Virus record (IMG/VR): IMGVR_UViG_2850796239_000003
Location: 1-14,699 of that record
Source of the DNA: a virus
Lineage: Duplodnaviria; Heunggongvirae; Uroviricota; Caudoviricetes
Direction: 5' to 3' (one strand)
DNA length: 14,699 nt
In this document: positions 1-14,699 of the stretch, piece by piece
Numbering within the stretch: position 1 is the stretch's first letter
Layout of the letters: every line of letters begins with the position of its first letter
Notes under the pieces: model-generated
Databases searched by the model: none
What the model saw: only the letters and a program-made list of their open reading frames with translations
Told to the model about the DNA's origin: nothing
Made by a program: the position numbers and the translations under genes

Positions 1-201
1 TTACCCATTGGCGCGGCTTAAGAGCTTATTTTTGAATTCACAATGGTCACGATATAACCATCTTGCTCGCCCGTGGATAACTTTGGCTTTTGGCAGGTCG
101 CCGGACTTAATCCGGTCATAGATGAAGGTTTTACCAAAGCCAGTATCAGCCATGATGAATTTCAAATCAACCAGTGAATCAGGTTGTAGTTCGTGTTGCA
201 T
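1..201 (-). CDS. AlpA/TorI-family winged-helix prophage regulator, excisionase-like (66 aa)
   Basis: Complete ORF, ATG at 201-199 and stop at 3-1. GGAG lies 9 nt upstream of the ATG. The translation has the AlpA/Xis-type pattern (TGFGKTFIYDRIKSGDLP...GRARWL) and the 66-aa size typical of TorI-like recombination directionality factors. Family call is from memory, not a search. Confidence 0.7.
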   Translation of the reverse strand: MQHELQPDSLVDLKFIMADTGFGKTFIYDRIKSGDLPKAKVIHGRARWLYRDHCEFKNKLLSRANG

Positions 202-246
202 GAGTGCTATCTCCGAATATGGAATCGAACCTGCAAATCAGGTAAT

Positions 247-267
247 AAAAAAACCGCATTGATGCGG
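247..267 (-). terminator. Putative rho-independent terminator after the 346-561 ORF
   Basis: On the minus strand: stem CCGCA / TGCGG with loop TCAA, followed by TTTTTTTATT. Confidence 0.45.
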
Positions 268-345
268 CGATGGTAGGTCTGGATATCTTGATAAATGAAA
301 ATACCTCATCGAGTGTGAGGCGGTGTGATTTCTTTATTTACACTC

Positions 346-561
346 TTAATGTTTGTCAGTGAATGGTTTCCCCATCTCCAGTAATGCCTTACTCATCTCA
401 TTTCGTAACTCTATAGCCATCCTGACGGCTTCAACCTGTGCAGGATGTCGGTTAATTGCTGGAGAATATCGTCGGGAGCGAAGGATTGAGAAAACAAAGA
501 TAATGCAAGCAACTATCTGAATTGCATTGCATGTTATTGATACAATGTGAATTGCAGCCAT
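346..561 (-). CDS. Hypothetical small single-pass membrane protein (71 aa)
   Basis: ORF with a hydrophobic N-terminal ~28 residues (IHIVSITCNAIQIVACIIFVFSIL) followed by a basic RSRR and a charged C-terminal tail. Weak GGGG RBS. The start sits immediately after the upstream terminator U-tract, so expression is uncertain. Confidence 0.3.
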   Translation of the reverse strand: MAAIHIVSITCNAIQIVACIIFVFSILRSRRYSPAINRHPAQVEAVRMAIELRNEMSKALLEMGKPFTDKH

Positions 562-572
562 CTACTACCCCA

Positions 573-598
573 AATAAAAAAACCGCCATCAGGCGGCT
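573..598 (-). terminator. Putative rho-independent terminator after the zinc-ribbon gene
   Basis: On the minus strand: GCCGCC TGAT GGCGG(T) hairpin followed by TTTTTTTATTT. Confidence 0.55.
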
Positions 599-662
599 TG
601 GTGTTCTTTCAGTTCTTCAATTCGAATATTGGTTACATTGTTTTCATATATGAATAAATAAA

Positions 663-842
663 TTAGCTTTTTTCGTTGCCTTCGCGTTCTTTATTAATTT
701 TGACAAACTCGTTTTTACCAAGCTCTCCAAATGCGTCTTTAGAGTCGTTGTATCCGCAATCGCAGCACACATAATCACCAGACCATTCACGCATTGTTTT
801 TTCTTTTGCAATATTTCCAGAACCGCATTTTGGACAAGACAT
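663..842 (-). CDS. Standalone zinc-ribbon protein, YgiT/MqsA-N-terminal-like (59 aa)
   Basis: Start taken at the ATG at 842-840, which has GGAGG 7 nt upstream; the ORF-track start at 875 is a TTG with no RBS. Two Cys pairs, CPKCG and CCDCG, about 20 residues apart, then an acidic/lysine-rich tail. The resemblance to the MqsA zinc-binding domain (MKCPVC...YCVHC...ESDAF) is from memory. Confidence 0.55.
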   Translation of the reverse strand: MSCPKCGSGNIAKEKTMREWSGDYVCCDCGYNDSKDAFGELGKNEFVKINKEREGNEKS

Positions 843-979
843 ATCACTACCTCCAAAGCATGAGTGAGATGACAACGTAACATTGATTGGAGATTAACAA
901 TAGATTGCTGATGTAAAAGATATGTATAAGCTTCGCTTTCAAAGTGGAGGATCTGATAGCGGCATCTAGGCTGTGTCCC

Positions 980-1495
980 TTAATTACGTAAGCGTTGATA
1001 AAAGAGTCGGATGCAGCCCAGTTTCACCATCGCCAGGTAATTTCTCGCCGTTTTGTCGTAACGCGTGGCGATGCGGCGATATTCTTTCAGCCGCCCAAAG
1101 CACCGTTCAACGACATTACGATTGCGGTACGCATCACGATCAAGCTGTGCACGTCCATCCGATGCCATTTTCTCATTTGACTTTCGGGGGATTACTGCCT
1201 TTATACCGTTATTTTTCAGCTCGTTGCGCAATGCGCGCCCTGAATACGCTTTATCAGCCAGTACCGCATGTCCACGGCGTTTCATGCTGCCGTTCTGACG
1301 CTGAACGCCAATCCCGTCCAGAAGTCGTTGCGCGAACTGGCTTTCATGAGCTTGTCCGGGGCTTAGCACGATATTTAACGGGAGGCCACTTCCGTCTGTT
1401 GCCAGATGGATTTTGGTGCCAAAACCGCCGCGAGAGCGACCCAGCCCATTATCTCCGTCGATATCGGGATGTTTTTTTGAGCACCGGCGGCACAT
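980..1495 (-). CDS. IS5-family transposase orfB (DDE catalytic part, -1 frame relative to orfA)
   Basis: Contains GLGRSRGGFGTKIHLATDG, LADKAYSG and the Y-x2-R-x3-E-x6-K signature (DAYRNRNVVERCFGRLK). Overlaps orfA by about 120 nt across an A-run. Confidence 0.85.
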   Translation of the reverse strand: MCRRCSKKHPDIDGDNGLGRSRGGFGTKIHLATDGSGLPLNIVLSPGQAHESQFAQRLLDGIGVQRQNGSMKRRGHAVLADKAYSGRALRNELKNNGIKAVIPRKSNEKMASDGRAQLDRDAYRNRNVVERCFGRLKEYRRIATRYDKTARNYLAMVKLGCIRLFYQRLRN

Positions 1496-1824
1496 TTCAG
1501 CGCCCGGATATTACTGCCATCCAGCGCGGTGGCAGACCAGTCAATAAAGCCGTTTGCATCAAGTAGCGAAAGCAACCTGTTGAAAATAATATTAATCACG
1601 CCTGACTTTGACCATCGGTTAAAGCGGTTATAAACAGTTTTCCATGACCCATATCGTTCGGGTAAATCGCGCCATGGTGCACCGGAACATAACACCCAGA
1701 ACATGCCATTGATGATTTTACGGTGCTCAGCCCATGGGCGTCCGGCCCGTGGTGTGGCGGGTTCAGGAGGTAACAGGGGCTTGATGATGGTCCATGCCTC
1801 ATCGGGAAGGTCGTAGCGAGCCAT
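1375..1824 (-). CDS. IS5-family transposase orfA (149 aa, N-terminal DNA-binding part)
   Basis: MARYDLPDEAWTIIKPLLP...GRPWAEHRKIINGMFWVLCSGAPWRDLPERYGSWKTVYNRFNRW, the conserved N-terminal module of IS5/IS427-type transposases. Confidence 0.85.
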   Translation of the reverse strand: MARYDLPDEAWTIIKPLLPPEPATPRAGRPWAEHRKIINGMFWVLCSGAPWRDLPERYGSWKTVYNRFNRWSKSGVINIIFNRLLSLLDANGFIDWSATALDGSNIRALKCAAGAQKNIPISTEIMGWVALAAVLAPKSIWQQTEVASR

Positions 1825-1884
1825 AGTTCAATATGTTGTGTAAACAGACAGTTACTATAGCTCAGATGATTAAGGGACACAGCC

Positions 1885-2901
1885 TACATCACTGTTGTTG
1901 TTGAATATCAGCAACTGGAGGAAGCGATCAAGCTTAACCAACTGGAAGAAATTCTCGCGCCGGTTCGCCAGCGAATCGTTACCGACCTTGAAACAGAGCT
2001 TGCTCACTTCATGATGAATAACGGTGCGTTGTCACTTGGTAGCCCCAATACTCCAATCACCAAATGGTCTGATGTTGCGCAGACGGCATCTTTCCTGAAA
2101 GACCTCGGCGTTAATGAAGGTGAAAACTATGCTGTAATGGATCCATGGTCTGCACAGCGACTTGCTGATGCGCAGACTGGTTTGCACGCTTCAGATCAAT
2201 TGGTTCGTACTGCATGGGAGAATGCACAGATCCCAACCAATTTTGGCGGCATTCGCGCACTGATGTCTAATGGGCTTGCCTCTCGTACGCAGGGGGCATT
2301 TGGCGGAACACTGACAGTCAAAACACAGCCAACTGTTACCTATAACGCAGTTAAAGACTCATACCAGTTCACTGTAACATTGACCGGAGCGACAGCCAGC
2401 GTTACAGGTTTTCTGAAAGCTGGTGATCAGGTTAAATTCACCAATACCTACTGGCTGCAACAGCAGACCAAACAGGCGTTGTATAACGGAGCCACACCAA
2501 TTAGCTTCACTGCAACGGTTACTGCTGATGCTAATTCAGACAGCAGTGGCAATGTGACGGTTACGCTTTCTGGTGTTCCGATTTATGACACTACAAACCC
2601 GCAGTACAACTCTGTAAGTCGTCAGGTAGCGGCAAACGATGCCGTATCTGTAGTAGGCACTGCTAGCCAGACAATGAAGCCAAACCTGTTCTATAACAAG
2701 TTCTTCTGTGGACTTGGCTCTATCCCACTGCCGAAACTGCACAGTATTGATTCTGCTGTTGCAACATATGAAGGTTTCTCCATCCGCGTACATAAATACG
2801 CAGATGGCGATGCCAACGTGCAAAAAATGCGCTTTGACTTACTGCCTGCATATGTGTGCTTTAACCCTCACATGGGCGGTCAGTTCTTCGGTAATCCGTA
2901 A
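1885..2901 (+). pseudogene. Major capsid (coat) protein of a P22-like phage, 5'-truncated at the IS boundary (about 338 C-terminal codons)
   Basis: The reading frame is open from the first base after IS copy 1 to TAA at 2899-2901, with no plausible start or RBS at the 5' end. It lies immediately upstream of clear gp4 and gp10 homologs, the coat position in P22-like late operons, and shows loose local similarity to P22 coat. No N-terminal coat sequence exists left of the IS. Confidence 0.65.
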
Positions 2902-2905
2902 TAAC

Positions 2906-2930
2906 AAGGGGCTTACGCCCCTTTTATGTT
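2906..2930 (+). terminator. Rho-independent terminator/attenuator just downstream of the coat gene
   Basis: AAGGGGC TTAC GCCCCTT hairpin followed by TTATGTTTT on the plus strand, 5 nt after the coat stop. Confidence 0.55.
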
Positions 2931-2943
2931 TTAAGGAAACAAT

Positions 2944-3129
2944 ATGGATCGCATGAGTGTATTCCTTGCCGCAGATAACGAATCCGGGCATGTACAGGCC
3001 GTTATCGCAGAAAAAGACTTCCAGTTTTTCGAAAAGTTGGGCTTTGTTGCCTCAGTTGATGAATTGAAACCGACCAGTAAGCGAGGTCGTAAGGCGGCAG
3101 ACAATGGCAACAGTACTGACAAAGGGTGA
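2944..3129 (+). CDS. Hypothetical small protein between coat and gp4 (61 aa)
   Basis: ATG preceded by AAGGAAA. Position matches the small ORF found between coat and the gp4 homolog in Sf6-like genomes. Overlaps the gp4-like start by 26 nt. Confidence 0.45.
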   Translation: MDRMSVFLAADNESGHVQAVIAEKDFQFFEKLGFVASVDELKPTSKRGRKAADNGNSTDKG

Positions 3130-3586
3130 GATCGTCCTTTTTGCGCTTCGTAAGTTTGCTATTGCTTCTAATGCATCGCTGACTGATGTTGAGCCGCAAT
3201 CAATTGAAGATGGTGTAAATGATCTGGAAGATATGATGTCCGAGTGGATGATTAACCCCGGCGACATTGGTTACGCTTTCGCAACTGGAGATGAGCAGCC
3301 ATTACCAGATGATGAGTCAGGTCTTCCAAGAAAATACAAACACGCAGTAGGCTATCAGTTATTGCTGAGAATGCTATCTGATTACAGCCTTGAGCCAACT
3401 CCGCAAGTTCTCAGTAACGCCCAACGCTCATATGATGCCTTGATGACCGACACTCTGGTTGTTCCTTCAATGCGACGACGTGGAGATTTTCCTGTAGGAC
3501 AGGGTAATAAATATGACGTGTTCACATCTGACCGATATTATCCAGGCGATCTCCCTCTGATTGATGGCGATATCCCAAATTCATAG
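3104..3586 (+). CDS. Head-to-tail adaptor / packaged-DNA stabilisation protein, P22 gp4-like (160 aa)
   Basis: Translation aligns along its N-terminal half with recalled P22 gp4 (window ...[34 protein letters not shown] versus P22 ...[34 protein letters not shown]). Correct size and position. Confidence 0.88.
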   Translation: [160 protein letters not shown]

Positions 3587-3594
3587 GTGAATAA

Positions 3595-5013
3595 ATGCCT
3601 ATTCAGCAACTTCCGCTTATGAAAGGTGTCGGCAAAGACTTTCGAAACGCCGACTATATCGACTATCTGCCAGTGAATATGCTGGCTACACCCAAAGAAA
3701 TCCTGAACAGCAGCGGATATCTTCGCTCATTCCCTGGCATTGCCAAACGCTCTGATGTGAACGGTGTATCTCGCGGCGTCGAGTACAACATGGCGCAGAA
3801 TGCTGTTTATCGTGTGTGTGGTGGCAAGCTGTACAAAGGAGAAAGTGAAGTCGGTGACGTCGCCGGAAGTGGTCGCGTATCAATGGCGCATGGTCGTACA
3901 TCTCAGGCGATAGGTGTTAATGGTCAACTGGTCGAGTATCGCTATGATGGCACGATTAAAACCGTCTCAAACTGGCCTACAGATAGCGGATTCACTCAGT
4001 ATGAGCTAGGTTCGGTTCGTGACATTACGCGCTTACGTGGGCGTTATGCGTGGTCAAAAGACGGTACTGATTCATGGTTTATCACTGACCTTGAAGACGA
4101 ATCACATCCTGACCGATACAGCGCACAATATCGCGCAGAATCTCAGCCTGATGGCATCATCGGCATAGGGACATGGCGAGACTTCATCGTCTGCTTTGGT
4201 TCATCGACGATTGAATATTTCTCCCTGACTGGTGCAACCACCGTTGGTGCTGCTTTGTATGTCGCCCAGCCATCATTGATGGTGCAAAAAGGCATCGCCG
4301 GGACTTACTGCAAAACGCCGTTTGCTGATTCCTATGCTTTCATCAGCAACCCGGCAACGGGTGCGCCGTCTGTGTACATCATCGGTTCCGGTCAGGTATC
4401 ACCAATCGCCAGCGCGAGCATTGAGAAAATACTTCGCTCCTACACTGCTGATGAACTGGCTGATGGTGTGATGGAGTCTCTGCGATTTGATGCGCATGAG
4501 TTGCTGATTATCCATCTTCCGCGTCACGTCCTTGTGTACGATGCATCTTCAAGCGCCAATGGTCCGCAATGGTGTGTGCTGAAAACAGGCCTGTATGACG
4601 ATGTGTACCGCGCTATCGACTTCATTTACGAAGGCAATCAGATAACGTGCGGCGATAAGCTGGAATCCGTGACCGGGAAACTGCAGTTCGATATCAGCAG
4701 CCAGTACGACAAGCAGCAGGAACACCTGCTGTTTACTCCGTTGTTCAAAGCGGATAACGCCAGATGCTTCGATCTGGAGGTGGAATCATCCACTGGCGTA
4801 GCTCAGTACGCCGACCGCCTGTTCCTCTCTGCAACCACTGACGGCATCAATTACGGACGTGAGCAGATGATTGAGCAGAATGAACCGTTCGTTTACGACA
4901 AACGCGTTTTGTGGAAGCGAGTAGGGCGCATCAGGAAAAATGTCGGCTTCAAATTGCGCATTATCACGAAGTCACCTGTCACTCTGTCTGGCACTCAGAT
5001 AAGGATTGAGTAA
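3595..5013 (+). CDS. Packaged-DNA stabilisation / tail hub protein, P22 gp10-like (472 aa)
   Basis: N-terminus [49 protein letters not shown] matches recalled P22 gp10. Same length as P22 gp10. AGGTG RBS. Stop overlaps the next start (TAATG). Confidence 0.88.
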
Positions 5014-5861
5014 TGGCGGATTCGAATCTCAATACACCTGTTATTGTTCAGGCGACGCGGCTCGATACATCAATCCTTCCACGCAATATCTTCTCGCAGT
5101 CGTATCTGCTTTACGTTATCGCACAGGGTACTGATGTTGGTAACGTGGTGAATAAGGCCAACGAGTCCGGACAGGGCGCTTATGACGCGCAGGTAAGGAA
5201 CGATGAGCAGGATGTGATTCTGGTTGATCACGAAATTCGACTGGCATCAGCTGAAGCGAAGATACAGGACCACGAAACAAGGATCACTAACGCAGAAGCA
5301 GCGATAGTCGGCCTTGATTCGCGATTAACGACAGCAGAAAACGATATTGATTATCTGACTGATGAAGTTGTCGCCATTCAAAACACGCTTTCAGACCATG
5401 AAACGCGCATCGATGCTCTGGAGTATGCCACTACTCGCAAGAAGTCAGAGGTTGTTTACTCTGGCGTATCTGTAACCATCCCGACAGCGCCGACTAACCT
5501 TGTTAGCCTGCTGAAAACGCTCACGCCGTCATCCGGCTCGTTGGCACCATTCTTCGACACCGTTAACAACAAGATGGTTGTGTTCAACGAGAACAAAACC
5601 TTGTTCTTCAAGTTGTCGATTGTCGGGACGTGGCCCAGTGGAACCGCAAACAGGTCAATGCAGCTAACCTTTTCCGGCTCTGTTCCTGACACGTTGGTCA
5701 GCAGTCGTAATGCGGCGACAACAACCGATAACATCTTGTTAGCTACGTTCTTCAGCGTGGATAAAGACGGCTTTCTTGTCACAAATGGCAGCACGTTAAC
5801 CATTCAGTCAAATGGTGCGGCGTTTACTGCCACAACCATCAAGATAATCGCGGAGCAGTGA
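5013..5861 (+). CDS. Tail needle, P22 gp26-like N-terminus with C-terminal knob domain (282 aa)
   Basis: N-terminal ~60 residues ([43 protein letters not shown]...[16 protein letters not shown]) match recalled P22 gp26. A heptad-rich coiled-coil stretch is followed by a C-terminal domain of ~140 residues that P22 gp26 lacks, as in Sf6-type needles. Confidence 0.88.
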
Positions 5862-6316
5862 TGATTCAGTTCAAACCAACGCGAAACATCGACCTGATCG
5901 AAGCAGTAGGAAATCACCCTGACATTATCGCCGGGAGCAACAACGGCGATGGATACGACTACAAGCCTGAATGCCGTTACTTTGAGGTTAACGTGCATGG
6001 GCAGTTCGGCGGCATTGTTTACTATCAGGAGATTCAGCCGCTGACATTCGATTGCCACGCCATGTACCTGCCAGAGATTCGCGGCTTCAGCAAGGAAATC
6101 GGGCTGGCGTTCTGGCGATACATTCTGACTAACACCACCGTTCAGTGTGTCACATCGTTCGCTGCACGCAAATTCCGCCACGGGCAGATGTACTGCGCAA
6201 TGATTGGCCTTAAGCGTGTCGGAACCATCAAGAAATACTTTAAAGGCGTGGATGACGTGACGTTTTACAGCGCCACACGCGAAGAACTAATCGACTTCCT
6301 GAATCACGGGAGATAG
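5861..6316 (+). CDS. P22 gp14-like virion assembly protein (151 aa), by synteny
   Basis: ATG at 5861 overlaps the needle stop (TGATG) with GGAG 5 nt upstream; the ORF-track GTG at 5858 is less likely. Size and position match gene 14 between the needle and ejection-protein genes. Confidence 0.65.
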   Translation: MIQFKPTRNIDLIEAVGNHPDIIAGSNNGDGYDYKPECRYFEVNVHGQFGGIVYYQEIQPLTFDCHAMYLPEIRGFSKEIGLAFWRYILTNTTVQCVTSFAARKFRHGQMYCAMIGLKRVGTIKKYFKGVDDVTFYSATREELIDFLNHGR

Positions 6317-6318
6317 CT

Positions 6319-6856
6319 ATGTTATATGCATTTAAGCTGGGCAGAAAACTGCGCGGCGAGGAACCTTATTGCCCTGAAAAAGGCGGGAAAGGTGGCTCCG
6401 ATAAAAGCGCAAAGTATGCAGCAGAAGCTCAGAAGTATGCCGCAGACCTGCAAAATCAGCAGTGGCAGACGATCATGAAAAACCTTGCTCCGTTCACGCC
6501 TCTTGCGGAGCAGTATGTTAACCAGCTTCAGAACCTTTCCAGTTTAGAAGGTCAGGGGCAGGCACTTAATCAGTATTACAACTCTCAGCAGTATAAAGAC
6601 CTTGCAGGTCAGGCTCGTTACCAGAGTCTTGCTGCTGCGGAGGCGACGGGTGGACTTGGTTCGACAGCCACAAGCAATCAACTGGCTACGATCGCGCCTA
6701 CTCTCGGTCAGTCTTGGTTATCAAACCAGATGAGCAATTACAACAATCTGGCAAACGTTGGGCTTGGTGCACTTCAAGGTCAGGCAAACGCCGGGCAGAC
6801 GTACGCCAACAACATGAGCAGCATTGCACAGCAAAGCGCAGCTCTTGCCGCTGCTA
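6319..6856 (+). pseudogene. Ejection protein, P22 gp7-like, 5' fragment interrupted by IS copy 2
   Basis: ORF starts at ATG 6319 and runs into the IS, where the frame terminates artificially (...ARLCPLII*). Q/N/A-rich ejection-protein-like composition. Position matches gene 7. Confidence 0.7.
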
Positions 6857-6872
6857 GGCTGTGTCCCTTAAT
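6857..6872. repeat. Left terminal inverted repeat of IS copy 2
   Basis: GGCTGTGTCCCTTAAT, a perfect reverse complement of 7757-7772. Confidence 0.85.
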
Positions 6873-6916
6873 CATCTGAGCTATAGTAACTGTCTGTTTA
6901 CACAACATATTGAACT

Positions 6917-7366
6917 ATGGCTCGCTACGACCTTCCCGATGAGGCATGGACCATCATCAAGCCCCTGTTACCTCCTGAACCCGCCACACCACGGGCCGGA
7001 CGCCCATGGGCTGAGCACCGTAAAATCATCAATGGCATGTTCTGGGTGTTATGTTCCGGTGCACCATGGCGCGATTTACCCGAACGATATGGGTCATGGA
7101 AAACTGTTTATAACCGCTTTAACCGATGGTCAAAGTCAGGCGTGATTAATATTATTTTCAACAGGTTGCTTTCGCTACTTGATGCAAACGGCTTTATTGA
7201 CTGGTCTGCCACCGCGCTGGATGGCAGTAATATCCGGGCGCTGAAATGTGCCGCCGGTGCTCAAAAAAACATCCCGATATCGACGGAGATAATGGGCTGG
7301 GTCGCTCTCGCGGCGGTTTTGGCACCAAAATCCATCTGGCAACAGACGGAAGTGGCCTCCCGTTAA
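6917..7366 (+). CDS. IS5-family transposase orfA (149 aa)
   Basis: Identical translation to copy 1 orfA. Confidence 0.85.
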   Translation: MARYDLPDEAWTIIKPLLPPEPATPRAGRPWAEHRKIINGMFWVLCSGAPWRDLPERYGSWKTVYNRFNRWSKSGVINIIFNRLLSLLDANGFIDWSATALDGSNIRALKCAAGAQKNIPISTEIMGWVALAAVLAPKSIWQQTEVASR

Positions 7367-7761
7367 ATATCGTGCTAAGCCCCGGACAAGCTCATGAAAG
7401 CCAGTTCGCGCAACGACTTCTGGACGGGATTGGCGTTCAGCGTCAGAACGGCAGCATGAAACGCCGTGGACATGCGGTACTGGCTGATAAAGCGTATTCA
7501 GGGTGCGCATTGCGCAACGAGCTGAAAAATAACGGTATAAAGGCAGTAATCCCCCGAAAGTCAAATGAGAAAATGGCATCGGATGGACGTGCACAGCTTG
7601 ATCGTGATGCGTACTGCAATCGTAATGTCGTTGAACGGTGCTTTGGGCGGCTGAAAGAATATCGCCGCATCGCCACGCGTTACGACAAAACGGCGAGAAA
7701 TTACCTGGCGATGGTGAAACTGGGCTGCATCCGACTCTTTTATCAACGCTTACGTAATTAA
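7246..7761 (+). CDS. IS5-family transposase orfB (DDE domain, -1 frame)
   Basis: As copy 1 orfB, with two Arg to Cys differences (TGC at 7504-7506 and 7615-7617 where copy 1 has CGC). Confidence 0.85.
   Translation: MCRRCSKKHPDIDGDNGLGRSRGGFGTKIHLATDGSGLPLNIVLSPGQAHESQFAQRLLDGIGVQRQNGSMKRRGHAVLADKAYSGCALRNELKNNGIKAVIPRKSNEKMASDGRAQLDRDAYCNRNVVERCFGRLKEYRRIATRYDKTARNYLAMVKLGCIRLFYQRLRN
7264..7270 (+). other. Candidate -1 programmed frameshift heptamer A AAA AAC joining orfA to orfB
   Basis: In the orfA frame the codons are caA AAA AAc. A -1 slip enters the orfB frame (..SKKHPDID..). The same motif occurs in copy 1 at 1471-1477 as a reverse complement. Confidence 0.5.
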
Positions 7762-7772
7762 GGGACACAGCC
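7757..7772. repeat. Right terminal inverted repeat of IS copy 2
   Basis: ATTAAGGGACACAGCC, a perfect reverse complement of 6857-6872. Confidence 0.85.
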
Positions 7773-7774
7773 TA

Positions 7775-7926
7775 ATGCCAATAAACCATCAAGTCTTCAG
7801 ACTGCAATTAGTGGCGGAACGTCTGGTGCGATTGCCGGTGCAGGTCTTGCCAGCCTTTTGGGAACATCAACACCTTGGGGCGCTGGCATTGGTGCTGGTA
7901 TCGGATTGCTTGGTTCGTTGTTTTAA
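7775..7926 (+). pseudogene. Ejection protein, P22 gp7-like, 3' fragment (about 50 codons)
   Basis: Removing the IS and one TA copy restores one continuous frame: ...AAN ANKPSSLQTAISGGTSGAIAGAGLASLLGTSTPWGAGIGAGIGLLGSLF, stop at 7924-7926. The rebuilt ORF is about 229 codons, the size I recall for P22 gp7. Confidence 0.65.
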
Positions 7927-7935
7927 GGGGTAATC

Positions 7936-9402
7936 ATGGCTACTTGGCAAGGATCAAATGGCGGATTGTTGGCTGGTATCGGCGGCGTCAACTCAAACGC
8001 TCCGAGCGTAAATGACATCGGCAATACGCTTCAGCTTATCAGGCAGAACAATGATATTGAGCGTTCAGGCGCTAACAATGTTGGGCTGACTGCTTTGCAA
8101 GGCCTTTCAGGTATTGCGGGGGTGTTTCAGCAGGAAAAGCAGGCTCAGCGGCAGAAAGAATTTCAGCAGGCATACGCTAATGCTTATGCGTCTGGTGATC
8201 GCGGTGCTTTGCGTCAGTTGGCTACTCAATATCCAGACCAGATTGAATCCGTTCGTAAAGGCATGGGATTCATTGATGAAGATCAGCGTAATTCTATCGG
8301 CACCTTAGCGGCTGGCGCACGCCTTGCGTCATCGTCTCCAGAAGCAATGCAATCATGGCTGCAAAACAACGCCAAGGAACTGACTCGCGTCGGTGTTGAC
8401 CCTAACAGCGTTGCTCAGATGTATCAGCAGAACCCTTCAGGATTTGGTGAGTTTGTTGATCACCTTGGAATGGCTGCTCTTGGTCCGATTGATTACTTCA
8501 ATGTTCAGGACAAGATGGCTGGTCGTGAGATTGACCGAGGCAGACTGGCAGAGACAATCCGCAGCAATCAGGCTGGAGAAGCACTTCAGGCGAGAGGGCA
8601 GGATATTAGCCGAGCAAATGCGTTAACGTCAGCATATGCACCAACAGCCGCAATGCAGAATTACAATCAGTACGCGCAAATGTTAAAGGCGGATCCAGAT
8701 GGTGCAGCGGCATTTGCGGCAGCGGCGGGAATTAATCCCAATGCTAAGAAATTACTTAAGGTTGAAACCAATCCTGATGGCTCGGTAACTAAGTATTACA
8801 CCGATGGCAGCGAGGAAGCCGGAAAACTAAACCAACCTATATCTGGTGATGGCATTAAACCAATTAGCTTGCCACAAGCGCAAAGCATCATAGATAAGGC
8901 TAATGAGGGTTCCAAGAAGGCGGCAGGATTTGCTTTGCGATTAAAAGATTCAATGGACTCAATGAATCAGCTTAGTAAAAGCATTGACCCTAAGCGAGTT
9001 GCATTAATAAATCGCTCTCTTGGTGATGGGACTATTGCAAATTTAAGCCTATCACCAGCGGAGCAGCAATATATGGTAAATGCGAGAGACGCCTTGTATG
9101 CAATTTTGCGCCCAGAAACAGGTGCAGCAATTACTCTGCCAGAGATGCAGGAGTATTCCAAAATGTACCTGCCTCAGCCCGGTGATTCCAAGGCTGCTAC
9201 TGAAACAAAAATGCGAAAAATGCAGGGCCAATATAACTCATTACGTGGTCAGTCTGGTCGCGTTTATGATGCTTTGGTGGTTTCAAGTGCTGCAAATAGT
9301 CAACAACAGAGCAATAGCCAACAACCGGCAAATACCCAACAGCAGCAGAGTCAATCCGGATCATATACCTCAAAATCAGGCATTCAATTTACGGTGGAAT
9401 GA
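7936..9402 (+). CDS. Ejection (internal virion) protein, P22 gp20-like (488 aa), by synteny and size
   Basis: ATG at 7936 preceded by AAGGGG. Gly/Ala/Gln-rich. Q/S-rich low-complexity C-terminal tail. Stop overlaps the next start (ATGA). Confidence 0.7.
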
Positions 9403-11246
9403 TGAAAGTAACTGCAAACGGTAAGACATTTACCTTCCCTGATGGTACGAGCATGGAAGATATTGGCACCGCCATTGATGAGTATTTTGCTGGTCAGGCT
9501 GTTCAGCAACAAACAGTTAATCAGGCCAATAATGAACCAGCACGTGAAGAACCATCATTGATGCAACAAGCTGGCGATTGGCTCACAGGCGGGCAAAGTG
9601 CAGGGCAAATTGCAGAGCAGGCTGGTCGTGGTCTGGTAAACATACCATTTGACGTATTGCAGGGCGGCGCAAGTCTGATTAATGCAATCAGTCAGGGGCT
9701 TGGTGGACCCAAGGTTTTGGATGATGTTTATCGTCCAGTAGACAGACCGACAGACACCTACGCGCAAGCCGGTGAAACAATTGGTGGGTATTTAGTTCCA
9801 GGAGTTGGAACGGCAGGAAGCATGGCTATTGGATCACTGGCAGAGGCCGCAAATCAGAAAGGCGATTTCGCACAAAATGCAGCTAAAAATGCCGGAGTTA
9901 ACCTTGCCGCTCAGGGTGTTCTTTCCGCAGCAGCAAAGGGAATAGGGCGTGGAATAACGGCTATAAAAGGTGATATTGCGCCAGAAGTGGCGAAGAAAAT
10001 TGCCACATCAGAATCGATGGGCGTGACACCAATGACATCTGATGTTATCCCGCCGAAAAATGCTTTCACTCGCGGCCTTACTCAGGATGCCGAGGGGGCT
10101 TTGCTCGGGACAGGCTCAAAGCGAGCGGAGCAATATGCAACGCGTAGTAAGCTGGTAAGTAATTATTTTGACCGTTTTGGTGAGTACAACCCTGATGATG
10201 TGGTGAAATCTCTGACCACCACGTTAAGGGGGCGGAAGGATGCCGCTGGCGCTGTTATCAATGACGTCACCAATAAAATGGGTAATGCCGCAGTTGATAC
10301 CACAAATACCATGAATGCTCTGAATACAGCGATCGCAAGACAGGAACGGCTTGGGACGTCTGCCAATCAAAGCCTGCTTACATCCTTGCGTAACCTACGT
10401 GAAGAATTAGCAAACCCTGCAACTGATTTGGATGTTACGTTTGATCTCTTGCGTCAGCACAGAACAGCATTTAGATCTAATGTTCAGGGAGATGCTATGG
10501 TCTTCCCCAACCAGGCAAAAGCAGCTACCAATATGGTAGAGAATGCAATGTCAAAAGACCTTCGTAACGCAGTTGCTAAAAACCTCGGTGCATCAGACGC
10601 AGCAAAATACCTTAAAGCAAATTCCGATTATGCAAACGTTTATAATAAGGTGCTTAATAAAAACATTGCTAACAAGCTCAACAAGGCAAGCAGTGAAGCC
10701 AGTCCTGAACTTATAAATACCGTTGTATTAAGCAGAAAACCATCTGACGTGAAACGAATCTGGAGCGCACTGGATGATAAGGGGAAAGATGCTATGCGTG
10801 CAGCTTACGTCAGCAAAATAGCGGAAAAGGCCGGGGACTCTCCAGCCAAGTTCATCACTGAAGTTAATAAGCTGAAATCTCAGTCAGGCGGTGAAATTTA
10901 CAACACTATTTTTTCTGGAAAGCACATGAAAGAGCTTGATGCTCTTCATGAAGTTCTACAGCAAACAGCAAGGTCAGACACCGCAAATGTAGTAACTCAG
11001 ACGGGGCAATCGCAAGCCAACAGGATAAGGACGATTGGCGCAACTGCGACCCTTGGCGTATCAATGGGGCTTGAGGCTGGTTTTGGTGCAATGATGCGCT
11101 TGTATGAGTCCAAAGCAGCAAGGAATGCTCTCTTACGTCTGGCAAACACTAAAACTGGAACGCCAGCTTATGAAAGAGCGCTAAATAATGCTGCAAATGC
11201 GATACGCCCTATACTTTCAAGCCAAATTACAGCAGAACAGCAATAA
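9399..11246 (+). CDS. Ejection (internal virion) protein, P22 gp16-like (615 aa), by synteny and size
   Basis: Last gene of the plus-strand late block. The length is close to the ~609 aa I recall for P22 gp16. N-terminus [16 protein letters not shown]. Confidence 0.7.
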
Positions 11247-11260
11247 AAGATAAGATATAA

Positions 11261-11554
11261 CTACCTGATATTACTGCTACTGTTGCATGTTACCGTGTTT
11301 CCAAATCCTGAATTGCAGTTTGTATATGTGTCAACGCGTGTTGGGTAAGGTTGAGTTATAACAGGCTGGCGCGCTTTTTGCTCGATCGCTTGCATTGTGT
11401 TTACAGCCTGGTAATTCAATAAAGCCTGCTGGAATGCTTGGCTTTGTGCTATTTGTTGGGCTTGTTCTTGGCTTTGTAATTGAACATAAAGATTCTGAAG
11501 CTCAAGTCTTGCCTTCATCGACACCTTGCCCGAGCATCTTTGCAGCAAGGACAT
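11261..11554 (-). CDS. Hypothetical Q-rich protein (97 aa; possibly the frameshifted 3' part of the lipoprotein gene)
   Basis: ORF in a different frame, overlapping the lipoprotein ORF by 53 nt. No good RBS at the first ATG; an internal ATG at 11518 has AAGGTG only 3 nt upstream. Gln-rich helical segment and Cys/Asn-rich C-terminus. Confidence 0.3.
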   Translation of the reverse strand: MSLLQRCSGKVSMKARLELQNLYVQLQSQEQAQQIAQSQAFQQALLNYQAVNTMQAIEQKARQPVITQPYPTRVDTYTNCNSGFGNTVTCNSSSNIR

Positions 11555-11726
11555 ACAGCTTAGGTGTTGGTGCTGATGCCATGCGTGAGTCGTTCTTCAC
11601 ACTGGCATCAAGGCAATTAGCCATATCGCTAAGCTTTTGATAGCGTTGTTCGCAACTTGCTTGATAGTCACTTACTTTTGCGCATCCAACCAGCAGAAGC
11701 GGGATAATTAACAGTGATTTTTTCAT
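11502..11726 (-). CDS. Small lipoprotein (74 aa) at the sieA-equivalent position
   Basis: Signal peptide with lipobox MKKSLLIIPLLLVGC and Cys at +1. AGGAG upstream of the ATG at 11726. Lies between gp16-like and mnt, where P22 carries sieA. Confidence 0.55.
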   Translation of the reverse strand: MKKSLLIIPLLLVGCAKVSDYQASCEQRYQKLSDMANCLDASVKNDSRMASAPTPKLYVLAAKMLGQGVDEGKT

Positions 11727-11796
11727 ATGGTTAACTCTCCTTAGTTTTTCACAGGATATCATGAAGGCAATGCCATTTTAGCCGGAAACTAGATTT

Positions 11797-12063
11797 CTAT
11801 GTTTCCTTTTTATTATTGCTATACATGGTCTTAAGCGTTTCAAAAACCATTTTCTTAACCATATCAGATTGTTGTTCTGCCATACGCTCTGCATCGTCAA
11901 TGTAAACTGATGCAGAGCTTTGTTTATCCAATGATTCCTCAATCGCTGCAATTATCTCTGAGTTCAGCGATCTGTTATTCATCTTCGCACGCTGTTTAAT
12001 TTTCGCGTGGAGTTCATGCGGAAGTATCAAGTGAAACTGCGCCTCGTCGTATTTGCTGTACAT
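11797..12063 (-). CDS. mnt: Mnt-like ribbon-helix-helix repressor (immI region), 88 aa
   Basis: Translation aligns with recalled P22 Mnt (window NNRSLNSEII...DDAERMAEQQSDMVKKMVFETLKTMY versus P22 NGRSMNSELL...NDAERLADEQSELVKKMVFDTLKDLY). Start at ATG 12063 is preferred; the alternative ATG at 12096 would give 99 aa. Confidence 0.8.
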   Translation of the reverse strand: MYSKYDEAQFHLILPHELHAKIKQRAKMNNRSLNSEIIAAIEESLDKQSSASVYIDDAERMAEQQSDMVKKMVFETLKTMYSNNKKET

Positions 12064-12134
12064 CCTTGATGCCTCACCAGTTGGGTGGAATGGCATCGTA
12101 ACCTACTGGATAAATACTCAATAGTACCATTTCG

Positions 12135-12139
12135 GTATG
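12135..12139. repeat. IS2 target-site duplication (GTATG), left copy
   Basis: The same 5-mer occurs at 13471-13475, directly abutting both IS2 termini. Confidence 0.85.
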
Positions 12140-12150
12140 TGGATTTGCCC

Positions 12151-13056
12151 CTATATTTCCAGACATCTGTTATCACTTAACCCATTACAAGCCCGCTGCC
12201 GCAGATATTCCCGTGGCGAGCGATAACCCAGCGCACTATGCGGATGCCATTCGTTATAATGCTCGAACGCCTCTGCAAGGTTCTTTGCTGCCGTTAACCC
12301 GTCTGGTTTGGGCATGATACTGATGTAGTCACGCTTTATCGTTTTCACGAAGCTCTCTGCTATTCCGTTACTCTCCGGACTCCGCACCGCCGTGTTCTTC
12401 GGTTCAAGTCCCAACATCCGGGCGAACTGGCGTGTTTCATTAGCCCGGTAGCATGAACCATTATCCGTCAGCCACTCCACTGGAGACGACGGAAGATCGT
12501 TGCCGAAGCGGCGTTCCACCGCTCCCAGCATGACGTCCTGTACTGTTTCACTGTTGAAGCCGCCGGTAGTCACCGCCCAGTGCAGTGCCTCACGATCACA
12601 GCAGTCCAGCGCGAACGTGACACGCAGTCTCTCTCCGTTATCACAGCAGAACTCGAACCCGTCAGAGCACCATCGCTGATTGCTTTCTTTCACGGCCACT
12701 CTGCCTGTATGTGCCCGTTTCGATGGCGGTACAGCAGGTTTTCGCTCAAGCAACAGCGCATTCTGGCGCATGATCCGGTAAACACGTTTGGCATTGATCG
12801 CAGGCATACCATCAAGTTCTGCCTGTCTGCGAAGCAGCGCCCATACCCGACGATAACCATACGTGGGCAGCTCTCCGATAACATGGTGTATACGGAGAAG
12901 CACATCCGTATCATCAGTGTGACGACTGCGGCGGCCATCCATCCAGTCATCGGTTCGTCTGAGAATGACGTGCAACTGCGCACGCGACACCCGGAGACAA
13001 CGGCTGACTAAGCTTACTCCCCATCCCCGGGCAATAAGGGCGCGTGCGCTATCCAC
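12151..13056 (-). CDS. insD: IS2 transposase OrfB (InsD), 301 aa
   Basis: Translation [28 protein letters not shown]... with an IS3-family DDE integrase core. Overlaps insC in the -1 frame. Confidence 0.9.
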
Positions 13057-13379
13057 TTTTTTGCCCGTCCATATTCAACGGCTTCTTTGAGGAGTTCATT
13101 TTCCATCGTTTTCTTGCCGAGCAGGCGCTGGAGTTCTTTAATCTGCTTCATGGCGGCAGCAAGTTCAGAGGCAGGAACAACCTGTTCTCCGGCGGCCACA
13201 GCAGTAAGACTTCCTTCCTGGTATTGCTTACGCCAGAGAAATAACTGGCTGGCTGCTACACCATGTTGCCGGGCAACGAGGGAGACCGTCATCCCCGGTT
13301 CAAAGCTCTGCTGAACAATTGCGATCTTTTCCTGTGTGGTACGCCGTCTGCGTTTCTCCGGCCCTAAGACATCAATCAT
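13014..13379 (-). CDS. insC: IS2 transposase OrfA (InsC), 121 aa
   Basis: [41 protein letters not shown]..., a helix-turn-helix protein. Start taken at the internal ATG at 13379 rather than the 136-aa ORF-track start. Confidence 0.9.
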
Positions 13380-13470
13380 CTGTACTCCAATGACTAGTCT
13401 AAAAACTAGTATTAAGACTATCACTTATTTAAGTGATACTGGTTGTCTGGAGATTCAGGGGGCCAGTCTA

Positions 13471-13475
13471 GTATG
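13471..13475. repeat. IS2 target-site duplication (GTATG), right copy
   Basis: Identical to 12135-12139. Confidence 0.85.
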
Positions 13476-13520
13476 CAATCACATCATGGTTGCATCATAT
13501 CATTCGTCTGGAGCAATGAA

Positions 13521-14676
13521 ATGTCAGATATCACCGCAAATGTTGTGGTAAGCATGCCTTCGCAACTCTTCACTATGGCTCGTTCTTTTAAAGCGGTTGC
13601 CAATGGCAAAATTTATATCGGTAAAATTGACACGGATCCGGTAAATCCTGAAAACCAGATTCAGGTTTATTTAGAGAACGAAGACGGCTCTTACGTTCCT
13701 GTTTCACAACCAATCATCATTAACGCTGCTGGTTACCCTGTATATAACGGACAGATTGCCAAATTCGTTACCGTGCAAGGCCATTCTATGGCTGTTTATG
13801 ATGCGTACGGTGCGCAGCAGTTTTATTTTCCGAATGTGCTGAAGTACGACCCGGATCAGCTTGAGAAAAGATTGTCGTTAAACACGGGAGCTTCCCTGAT
13901 TGGTACATATTCAGGAGCATCGATTCAGTCGGAGATTGACTGTATTAATGAAAGCATTGAAATTATCAATAATGACGAACTTCCAAATCTATCGCTAGGG
14001 GTGGCATCATCTATAAAAACATCGGTCCAAATAATTGATGAAATTAAAGATCCATCTATTTCTTATGATGCATTTGGTAACTCCGTGTTCTACAATGGCC
14101 GCAATTTATTTTGCTTCAGGAGATCACCTGAGCATGTTGATACTTATACAGGCATGCACAGTGTGTGCATAGCAGAAATACTCAACAATGGAGCTTGTAA
14201 AATAATATGGGAATATACTGATAATACTGGCAATGCACCTAAAGATCCTACATTATCAGTCAGTAACCCAGGTAATACACTAATTATTTCTTTTCAGATT
14301 CATAATGTTTCATCTGATACATATACTTCTGGTATTATTGGATATCCTGATTTGTCAAATACTGGTAAGTTTTTATCAAGTTCTGAACTTACCACGGATC
14401 ATAACGTTTTTTTATGGGGTAATGTACTGCAAACTCCATCTGGAAATTTTATAACATCCAGATATAAAATTGATGGCACTGGTGTAGAGATAATTTCTTC
14501 ATCTGATACAAATTTAAACGAAAATACAACATGGTCTATAGTTAGTACACTTTCTGTTGGTTCGTTCCAGACAAGAACATCAGTTAATGAATGCAGTCTT
14601 TCATATTATAGAAATCAACTAGTTGCAATAGTCAGAACTCAGTCAGGCTCTTCTTTGGGTGGTTTTGGATATGCTA
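13521..14676 (+). pseudogene. Tailspike: P22 gp9-type head-binding N-terminal domain fused to a divergent AT-rich receptor-binding domain, 3'-truncated by IS copy 3
   Basis: ATG at 13521 with GGAG 7 nt upstream. The first ~110 residues ([50 protein letters not shown]...[12 protein letters not shown]...NVLKYDPDQ) match the recalled P22 tailspike head-binding domain; the rest is unrelated and visibly AT-rich. The frame runs into the IS at 14677, leaving about 385 codons. Confidence 0.85.
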
Positions 14677-14699
14677 GGCTGTGTCCCTTAATCATCTGA
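14677..14699 (+). mobile_element. IS5-family IS (same element), copy 3, left end only (cut by the window edge)
   Basis: GGCTGTGTCCCTTAATCATCTGA is identical to the first 23 nt of copy 2 and is preceded by TA at 14675-14676. Confidence 0.8.

Follow-up and report, generated by a model that had tools for sequence, protein, structure and literature searches.

An ISSfl7-like insertion sequence at a probable internal deletion joint in an Sf6/HK620-type prophage remnant of the Shigella boydii lineage

The locus described here raises the question of how a phage coat gene without a 5′ end came to stand directly beside an insertion sequence (IS) whose other side carries small genes of the opposite strand. 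It lies in IMG/VR virus record IMGVR_UViG_2850796239_000003, of which positions 1 to 14,699 were analyzed as a whole (hereafter, the window; 14,699 nucleotides). A first-pass annotation, made from the sequence alone, had proposed that this IS (copy 1) marks a rearrangement junction, produced by deletion or inversion, at which the coat gene abuts an unrelated small-gene region. Comparison with phages HK620 and Sf6 bears out the junction. Copy 1 is abutted by HK620 position 2092 on its left and by HK620 position 24805 on its right, with the native strands kept on both sides. Judged from these alignments, copy 1 is very probably the scar of a collinear, IS-associated internal deletion that took out about 22.7 kb as measured on HK620, or about 25 kb as measured on Sf6, whose coordinates include an IS911. 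The features that define the joint are as follows.

1-201, minus strand: TorI-type excisionase (recombination directionality factor), identical to Sf6 gp18 at 66 of 66 amino acids
939-966, minus strand: remnant of a DUF551/Ea22-type early-left gene, last 8 codons and stop (MPLSDPPL, stop)
967-1886, minus strand: IS copy 1, ISSfl7-like, IS5 family, 920 nt including the flanking TA dinucleotides
1885-2901, plus strand: coat gene (gp5) fragment, codons 86-423 and stop, with no start codon before the ATG at 2011

Two distant parts of one prophage at a single IS

On the right of copy 1, the coat frame is open from 1885 to a stop codon at 2899-2901, and within it a start codon first appears at 2011 (ATG). 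The encoded fragment is identical to residues 86-423 of Sf6 gp5 at 333 of 338 positions (99%) and covers positions 83-423 of the 423 in the Pfam P22_CoatProtein profile. The gp5 alignment and the profile coverage rule out a coat family that naturally begins near 1885, and no coat start was found to the left of the IS. The predicted loss of the N-terminal part thus stands, although the number of missing codons is 85 by the gp5 alignment and not about 90 as first estimated. From 1884 onward, the window corresponds to HK620 from 24805 onward and to Sf6 from 5125 onward.

On the left, window positions 1-268 correspond to HK620 1457-1723 and positions 577-966 to HK620 1703-2092. In HK620, these coordinates cover TorI, Eag and the 3′ terminus of hkaE, a DUF551 gene. 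The gene remnant at 939-966 aligns with that 3′ end (HK620 2065-2092) and with the ead/Ea22-like gene of Sf101. Within the window, no coat, scaffold, portal or terminase sequence was found to the left of copy 1, and the minus-strand small genes, their terminators and the excisionase-like gene reported there by the first-pass annotation are all present. This small-gene region is not DNA unrelated to the coat gene but the opposite end of the prophage to which that gene belongs.

In an intact prophage of this type, the minus strand carries the attachment site (att), TorI and the early-left genes, followed by the immunity region. The plus strand carries the replication, nin, Q, lysis, terminase, portal, scaffold and coat genes and the late operon up to the tailspike, and the right end consists of an acyltransferase gene, int and att. 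In the window, the left-flank genes are on the minus strand and the late genes on the plus strand, as on the HK620 and Sf6 maps. Of the two events first proposed, deletion agrees with this order and strandedness and inversion does not. The deleted interval appears to extend from just upstream of the last eight codons of the DUF551/Ea22-type gene to coat codon 85. By comparison with the intact maps, it would comprise the remainder of the early-left operon, the immunity region, the replication and lysis genes, nin/Q, the genes for the two terminase subunits, the portal and the scaffold, and the 5′ end of the coat gene.

The chromosomal context agrees with this picture. The window is identical to part of the finished 5.16-Mb chromosome CP026875.1 (GCA_002950355.1) of the S. 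boydii lineage. An independent draft, AERN01000049.1 (GCA_000193915.2), comes from Shigella boydii ATCC 9905 (PMC6397287). The arrangement dsdC-TorI-IS-coat is identical in this draft; over 20.9 kb, the draft departs from CP026875.1 by only three mismatches and two gaps (99.98% identity), and the joint is the same base for base. The genes emrY and dsdA are each called in two pieces in CP026875.1 and are intact in the ATCC 9905 draft; the split calls may be true frameshifts or homopolymer sequencing errors.

To the left of the window are the host genes evgA, emrKY, dsdA, dsdX and dsdC, then an att core and an Sf6 attP arm that runs into TorI. This dsdC-side core, ATGGTGTCCCTGCAG, lies 74-88 bp left of window position 1 and is one C shorter than the argW/Sf6 core, a shortening that might impair excision of the remnant. 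To the right of the window are the rest of a third IS copy, the 3′ part of the tailspike gene, the acyltransferase gene, IntS, the other attP arm, the att core in tRNA-Arg(CCT), and yfdC. The intact core, ATGGTGTCCCCTGCAG, lies inside this tRNA gene (argW), beside IntS. Both phage arms match Sf6 attP. The attP lies between int and TorI in the Sf6 and HK620 annotations, and the int/TorI module with an intervening attP has been described for KplE1, HK620 and Sf6 (PMC2951348). Since attP stands between int and xis in this phage group, the left flank is the native xis end of the same prophage. The earlier conditional suggestion that this flank is the int/xis end of a prophage that lost its whole early region was thus right in substance for xis (TorI) but not for int, which is about 19 kb away at the argW end. 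As judged from these boundaries, the window represents the left two-thirds of a decayed Sf6/HK620-type (P22-like, Lederbergvirus) prophage at argW, between dsdC and yfdC.

The IS copies and the route to the deletion

Copy 1 proper has 916 bp (969-1884), with TA at 967-968 and 1885-1886, and both of its termini read GGCTGTGTCCCTTAAT, forming terminal inverted repeats. Its transposase is encoded in two overlapping frames, orfA (1375-1824) and orfB (980-1495), which score 132.7 and 178.1 bits, respectively, against the IS5-family transposase profile NF033580 (cut-off, 110 bits). The Pfam domains DDE_Tnp_1 and DDE_Tnp_4 are recorded for the called transposase gene. In the minus-strand reading, an A7 run lies inside the orfA/orfB overlap at about 1473-1479, and "programmed frameshift" is the RefSeq annotation on near-identical (at least 99%) copies of the element. 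Copy 1 is 99.5-100% identical to copies that RefSeq assigns to the ISSfl7 family, and 99.5-99.9% identical to those that bear the RefSeq label "IS5-like element ISSfl7 family transposase"; the name used here is taken from these labels. It appears to be an ordinary ISSfl7 copy, as no difference from the named element was detected. ISSfl7 is a known Shigella element that is reported to interrupt fimD in an S. boydii strain (PMC4374849). The ATCC 9905 draft contains ten more copies of the ISSfl7-like IS at 99.8-100% identity. The window holds two complete copies, at 967-1886 and 6855-7774, which are 100% identical and inverted relative to each other, as well as the first 25 nt of a third (from 14675); its total IS load is four insertions in 14.7 kb. 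A target preference of the form YTAR (a pyrimidine ahead of the left TA, a purine following the right one) was seen at 12 of 12 copies (the ten in ATCC 9905 and copies 2 and 3 of the window). Copies 2 and 3 lie in the late genes.

6855-7774, plus strand: IS copy 2 in gp7, inverted relative to copy 1, a simple insertion with duplicated TA
13521-14676, plus strand: N-terminal part of the tailspike gene (385 codons; Pfam Head_binding), broken by copy 3
14675-14699, plus strand: start of IS copy 3, at a second deletion joint

The first-pass annotation had used gp7 as an example of what a simple insertion leaves behind, and the comparison with Sf6 confirms it. The site reads GCTGC-TA-ATGCC in Sf6 and GCTGC-TA-(916 bp)-TA-ATGCC in the window, and the Sf6 sequence is contiguous across copy 2 apart from the duplicated TA. 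Copy 2 can thus serve as an internal control for the look of an unrearranged insertion.

At copy 3, the N-terminal part of the tailspike stops at residue 632 of its vB_EcoM-ZQ1 homolog and the C-terminal part restarts at residue 785. The homologs of vB_EcoM-ZQ1 and of Pectobacterium and Dickeya phages have about 147-152 extra residues exactly at this position (ZQ1 633-784), and the tailspike is still out of frame when copy 3 and one TA are taken out. Because of these extra residues and the discontinuous frame, copy 3 is also taken to border a deletion, of about 152 tailspike codons or 0.46 kb. The sizes add up: the remnant of 19.2 kb contains about 4.1 kb of IS and hence about 15.1 kb of phage DNA, compared with 38.3 kb in HK620. 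This agrees with losses of 22.7 kb and 0.46 kb, so that the phage DNA left accounts for the loss.

We infer that the IS itself caused the deletion at copy 1. In one possible route, the transposase would have produced an adjacent deletion by intramolecular transposition; in the other, RecA would have recombined two directly oriented copies, one in the DUF551/Ea22-type gene and one in the coat gene. The excised DNA would be lost in either route. Adjacent deletions are classic products of IS1 and IS903. For both joints, the transposase-mediated route is slightly favored over the RecA route, because copy 3 also has an adjacent deletion of about 0.46 kb and because two independent insertions in the same orientation 0.46 kb apart seem less likely than such a deletion. 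The event is ordinary IS-driven prophage decay, of a kind well known from Shigella genomes: Shigella IS elements facilitate rearrangements and deletions between homologous copies (PMC7373316).

The same structure or joint was not found in E. coli complete genomes. In FDAARGOS_943, a 26-nt extension of the match past the IS was considered as a shared joint and rejected, as it belongs to an unrelated insertion between ynaI and ynaJ. A reciprocal joint was not detected in IMG/VR or in JGI metagenomes. An ISSfl7 insertion at the coat site would yield an 85-amino-acid N-terminal product, because the TA followed by G gives a TAG stop codon. The exact 85-amino-acid coat N-terminal sequence was found only in "partial" proteins on E. 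coli draft contigs of at most 990 bp. No product of a reciprocal joint was identified among the truncated coat N-terminal products on record, which belong to other lineages. The closest of those whose context was examined, in E. coli draft BEML01000002.1, represents a separate event: there the coat gene is broken after GGGCGTGTAG by an element of the IS3 family, at a point that corresponds to 7 bp left of window position 1885 and so lies 7 bp upstream of where ISSfl7 sits, with terminase, portal and scaffold intact. The "partial head proteins" of 82-85 amino acids in E. coli drafts may reflect contig breaks at this IS3-family insertion.

The atypical TA and competing explanations

Several observations weigh against a collinear IS-associated deletion or against its details. 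TA stands on both sides of every copy, so target duplications cannot separate the two deletion routes. We infer that the 23-kb block has been lost from the genome, but the part of CP026875.1 that was read amounts to about 40 kb, which leaves a small probability that the block was relocated. A precursor with the IS alone in the coat or DUF551 gene and the interval intact was not found in E. coli complete genomes, IMG/VR or JGI metagenomes. The true joint itself is absent from IMG/VR and was not sought in the JGI metagenomes, which makes this negative, like that for the reciprocal joint, a weak one. Further, the left joint reads GGCATC-TA-IS in the window, whereas 109 of 109 homologs (104 IMG/VR matches and five phage sequences) read GGCATC-CAGTG. 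Finally, the coat site AAC-TA-C (CTAC) lacks the purine of YTAR, unlike the sites of the 12 other copies. Because the left TA is non-native and the coat half-site is non-canonical, neither standard deletion route fits without an extra assumption.

The left TA speaks against copy 1 having simply inserted into an intact gene, but it does not identify the route. The 3′ end of the DUF551/Ea22-type gene encodes a conserved HWMPLPEPPL motif, and the window allele also differs from its homologs at two positions near the joint. The exact allele is absent from IMG/VR, and the best E. coli match is 98.8% identical. The tetranucleotide CATC directly borders each TA on its outer side (963-966 and 1887-1890). 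A single C-to-T change separates the CTAGG of the joint from the Dcm site CCAGG. It is possible that a pre-existing TGG-to-TAG allele provided a canonical CTAG target. It is also conceivable that a near-cognate CCAG was captured and that a C-to-T change followed at the resulting CCAGG Dcm site. A speculation drawn from this one joint, and an improbable one, is that the flanking TA travels with ISSfl7-type elements (IS427 group, Harbinger-related), for instance in the form of 5′ overhangs like the TTAA of piggyBac. Such an element would join a near-cognate site such as CCAG, and replication would then fix a TA foreign to the target. At a second hybrid joint, on the Rac/Qin side of an ATCC 9905 copy (see below), the native alleles differ at the site where a non-native TA was sought. 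The atypical TA is the sole point of wider bearing at this locus, as it could help to explain the way in which elements of the IS427 group select their TA or bring it along.

Among the explanations that dispense with a simple loss, recombination with another ISSfl7 copy might have displaced the missing block elsewhere in the chromosome by relocation or inversion. The lineage is rich in such copies, with ten further places in ATCC 9905, and IS-bounded rearrangements appear to occur in it: in the ATCC 9905 draft (AERN01000081.1, 23413-31928), the left flank of copy 3, the copy beside the acyltransferase gene and intS, is not the tailspike but a Rac/Qin-like segment, hok-rem-DUF1367-ybcO-Q. Either these very close strains differ by an IS-mediated rearrangement or the junction is misassembled. 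The Rac/Qin-like DNA was considered as the missing early region and ruled out, since it is a hok-rem-Q module without similarity to Sf6. An inversion between copies 1 and 2 is also ruled out by the collinearity with Sf6 of gp7 and of every gene that lies between these copies. An inversion between prophage-internal copies would put the reversed coat 5′ part beside copy 1, but the flanks that remain have kept their collinear order and their native strands. Both att ends sit in their native host context, and none of the ten ATCC 9905 IS copies sampled borders Sf6-like DNA apart from int. Relocation with a collinear joint would amount to a deletion plus a separate re-insertion and is less parsimonious. 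We therefore hold displacement of the block to be quite unlikely.

Alternatively, the deletion may have preceded the IS. Illegitimate recombination from GGCATC to TACATC would have produced an IS-free joint, GGCATCTACATC, and ISSfl7 would have inserted later, by chance, at the TA of this joint and duplicated it. This order of events explains the non-native left TA without any mutation, since removal of the IS and one TA leaves GGCATC-TA-CATCAC, as expected for a normal TA-duplicating insertion. However, it requires that the IS hit exactly the TA of an existing joint, when 15 kb of phage DNA would offer roughly hundreds of TAs, and that it did so at a CTAC site that lacks the purine seen after the TA at 12 other copies. 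The second deletion, exactly at the end of copy 3, also points to a causal link between IS and deletion. An IS-independent deletion is thus no more credible than displacement. Least probable of all is an assembly artefact in which two unrelated IS-flanking contigs were misjoined through the 0.9-kb repeat: short-read contigs do break at each copy (a Logan contig spans only copy 1 to copy 2) and the left flank of copy 3 differs between the two assemblies, but the finished 5.16-Mb chromosome and the independent draft share the joint inside long contigs, and what the joint yields is a coherent prophage in which neither att end is missing.

The remnant and related prophages

Further features of the window are listed below.

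253-268, minus strand: terminator-like hairpin with T run
346-561, minus strand: open reading frame (ORF) of 71 amino acids, no Pfam or NCBIfam match
580-599, minus strand: terminator-like hairpin downstream of Eag
663-842, minus strand: Eag gene, 59 amino acids as called; the ORF is extendable to 883
2906-2923, plus strand: coat terminator hairpin; the homologous "t coat" is annotated in Sf6
12140-13470, between an arc/mnt-like gene and the tailspike gene: IS3-family element, 1331 bp, with ORFs of 121/136 and 301 amino acids

The Eag region is 98.5% identical to the hkaD region of HK620. Positions 269-576 (about 308 bp, including the 71-amino-acid ORF) have no HK620 counterpart. This stretch is bracketed by a terminator sequence present as two 25-nt direct repeats (244-268 and 573-597) that are 84% identical, and it resembles a small moron-type insertion between TorI and Eag. 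Past the coat gene, the late genes follow in the order gp4, gp10, gp26, gp14, gp7, gp20, gp16 and then the tailspike. The segment from coat through gp20 is 96-99% identical to Sf6; the late genes outside it were assigned by Pfam and by similarity to related prophages. The IS3-family element at 12140-13470, which we take to be IS2 and whose size fits IS2, proves on comparison with E. coli 90-1 to be a simple insertion that duplicated 5 bp.

From its gene content, the locus is to be regarded as a dead prophage remnant. With a truncated coat gene it cannot make heads, and its genes for terminase, portal, scaffold, lysis, replication and immunity are gone as well. What it does retain is the IntS/TorI/att recombination module and an acyltransferase gene whose product may modify the O-antigen. 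Its significance is mainly one of annotation; it illustrates cleanly how IS elements drive the decay of Shigella prophages, and the same phage type offers a parallel in E. coli 90-1.

Among known systems, KplE1 (CPS-53) of E. coli K-12 shares with the remnant the argW site next to dsdC, the IntS/TorI module and the attP between int and excisionase, an arrangement that places these two genes at opposite ends of the prophage. The present remnant differs from KplE1 in keeping most of the late operon (from the 3′ part of the coat gene to the tailspike), in its putative O-antigen acyltransferase gene and in the IS at its deletion joint. KplE1 is likewise a remnant without the immunity (CI) module (PMC2951348).

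The prophage of E. coli 90-1 (NZ_CP050047.1, 4473631-4489966) runs from torI through DUF551 to an ISKpn26, which is followed by a portal gene without its N-terminus; an IS911 also lies between its gp10 and gp26. It resembles the window in being of the same phage type and in having an IS5-family element between DUF551 genes and a 5′-truncated morphogenesis gene. It is unlike the window in the IS (ISKpn26), in the right endpoint (portal and not coat) and in the host lineage, and these differences indicate an independent parallel event. With IS-mediated deletions in general, the window has in common an IS exactly at the novel joint, collinear flanks and an IS-rich genome; it differs from them in its non-native left TA and its non-canonical coat half-site.

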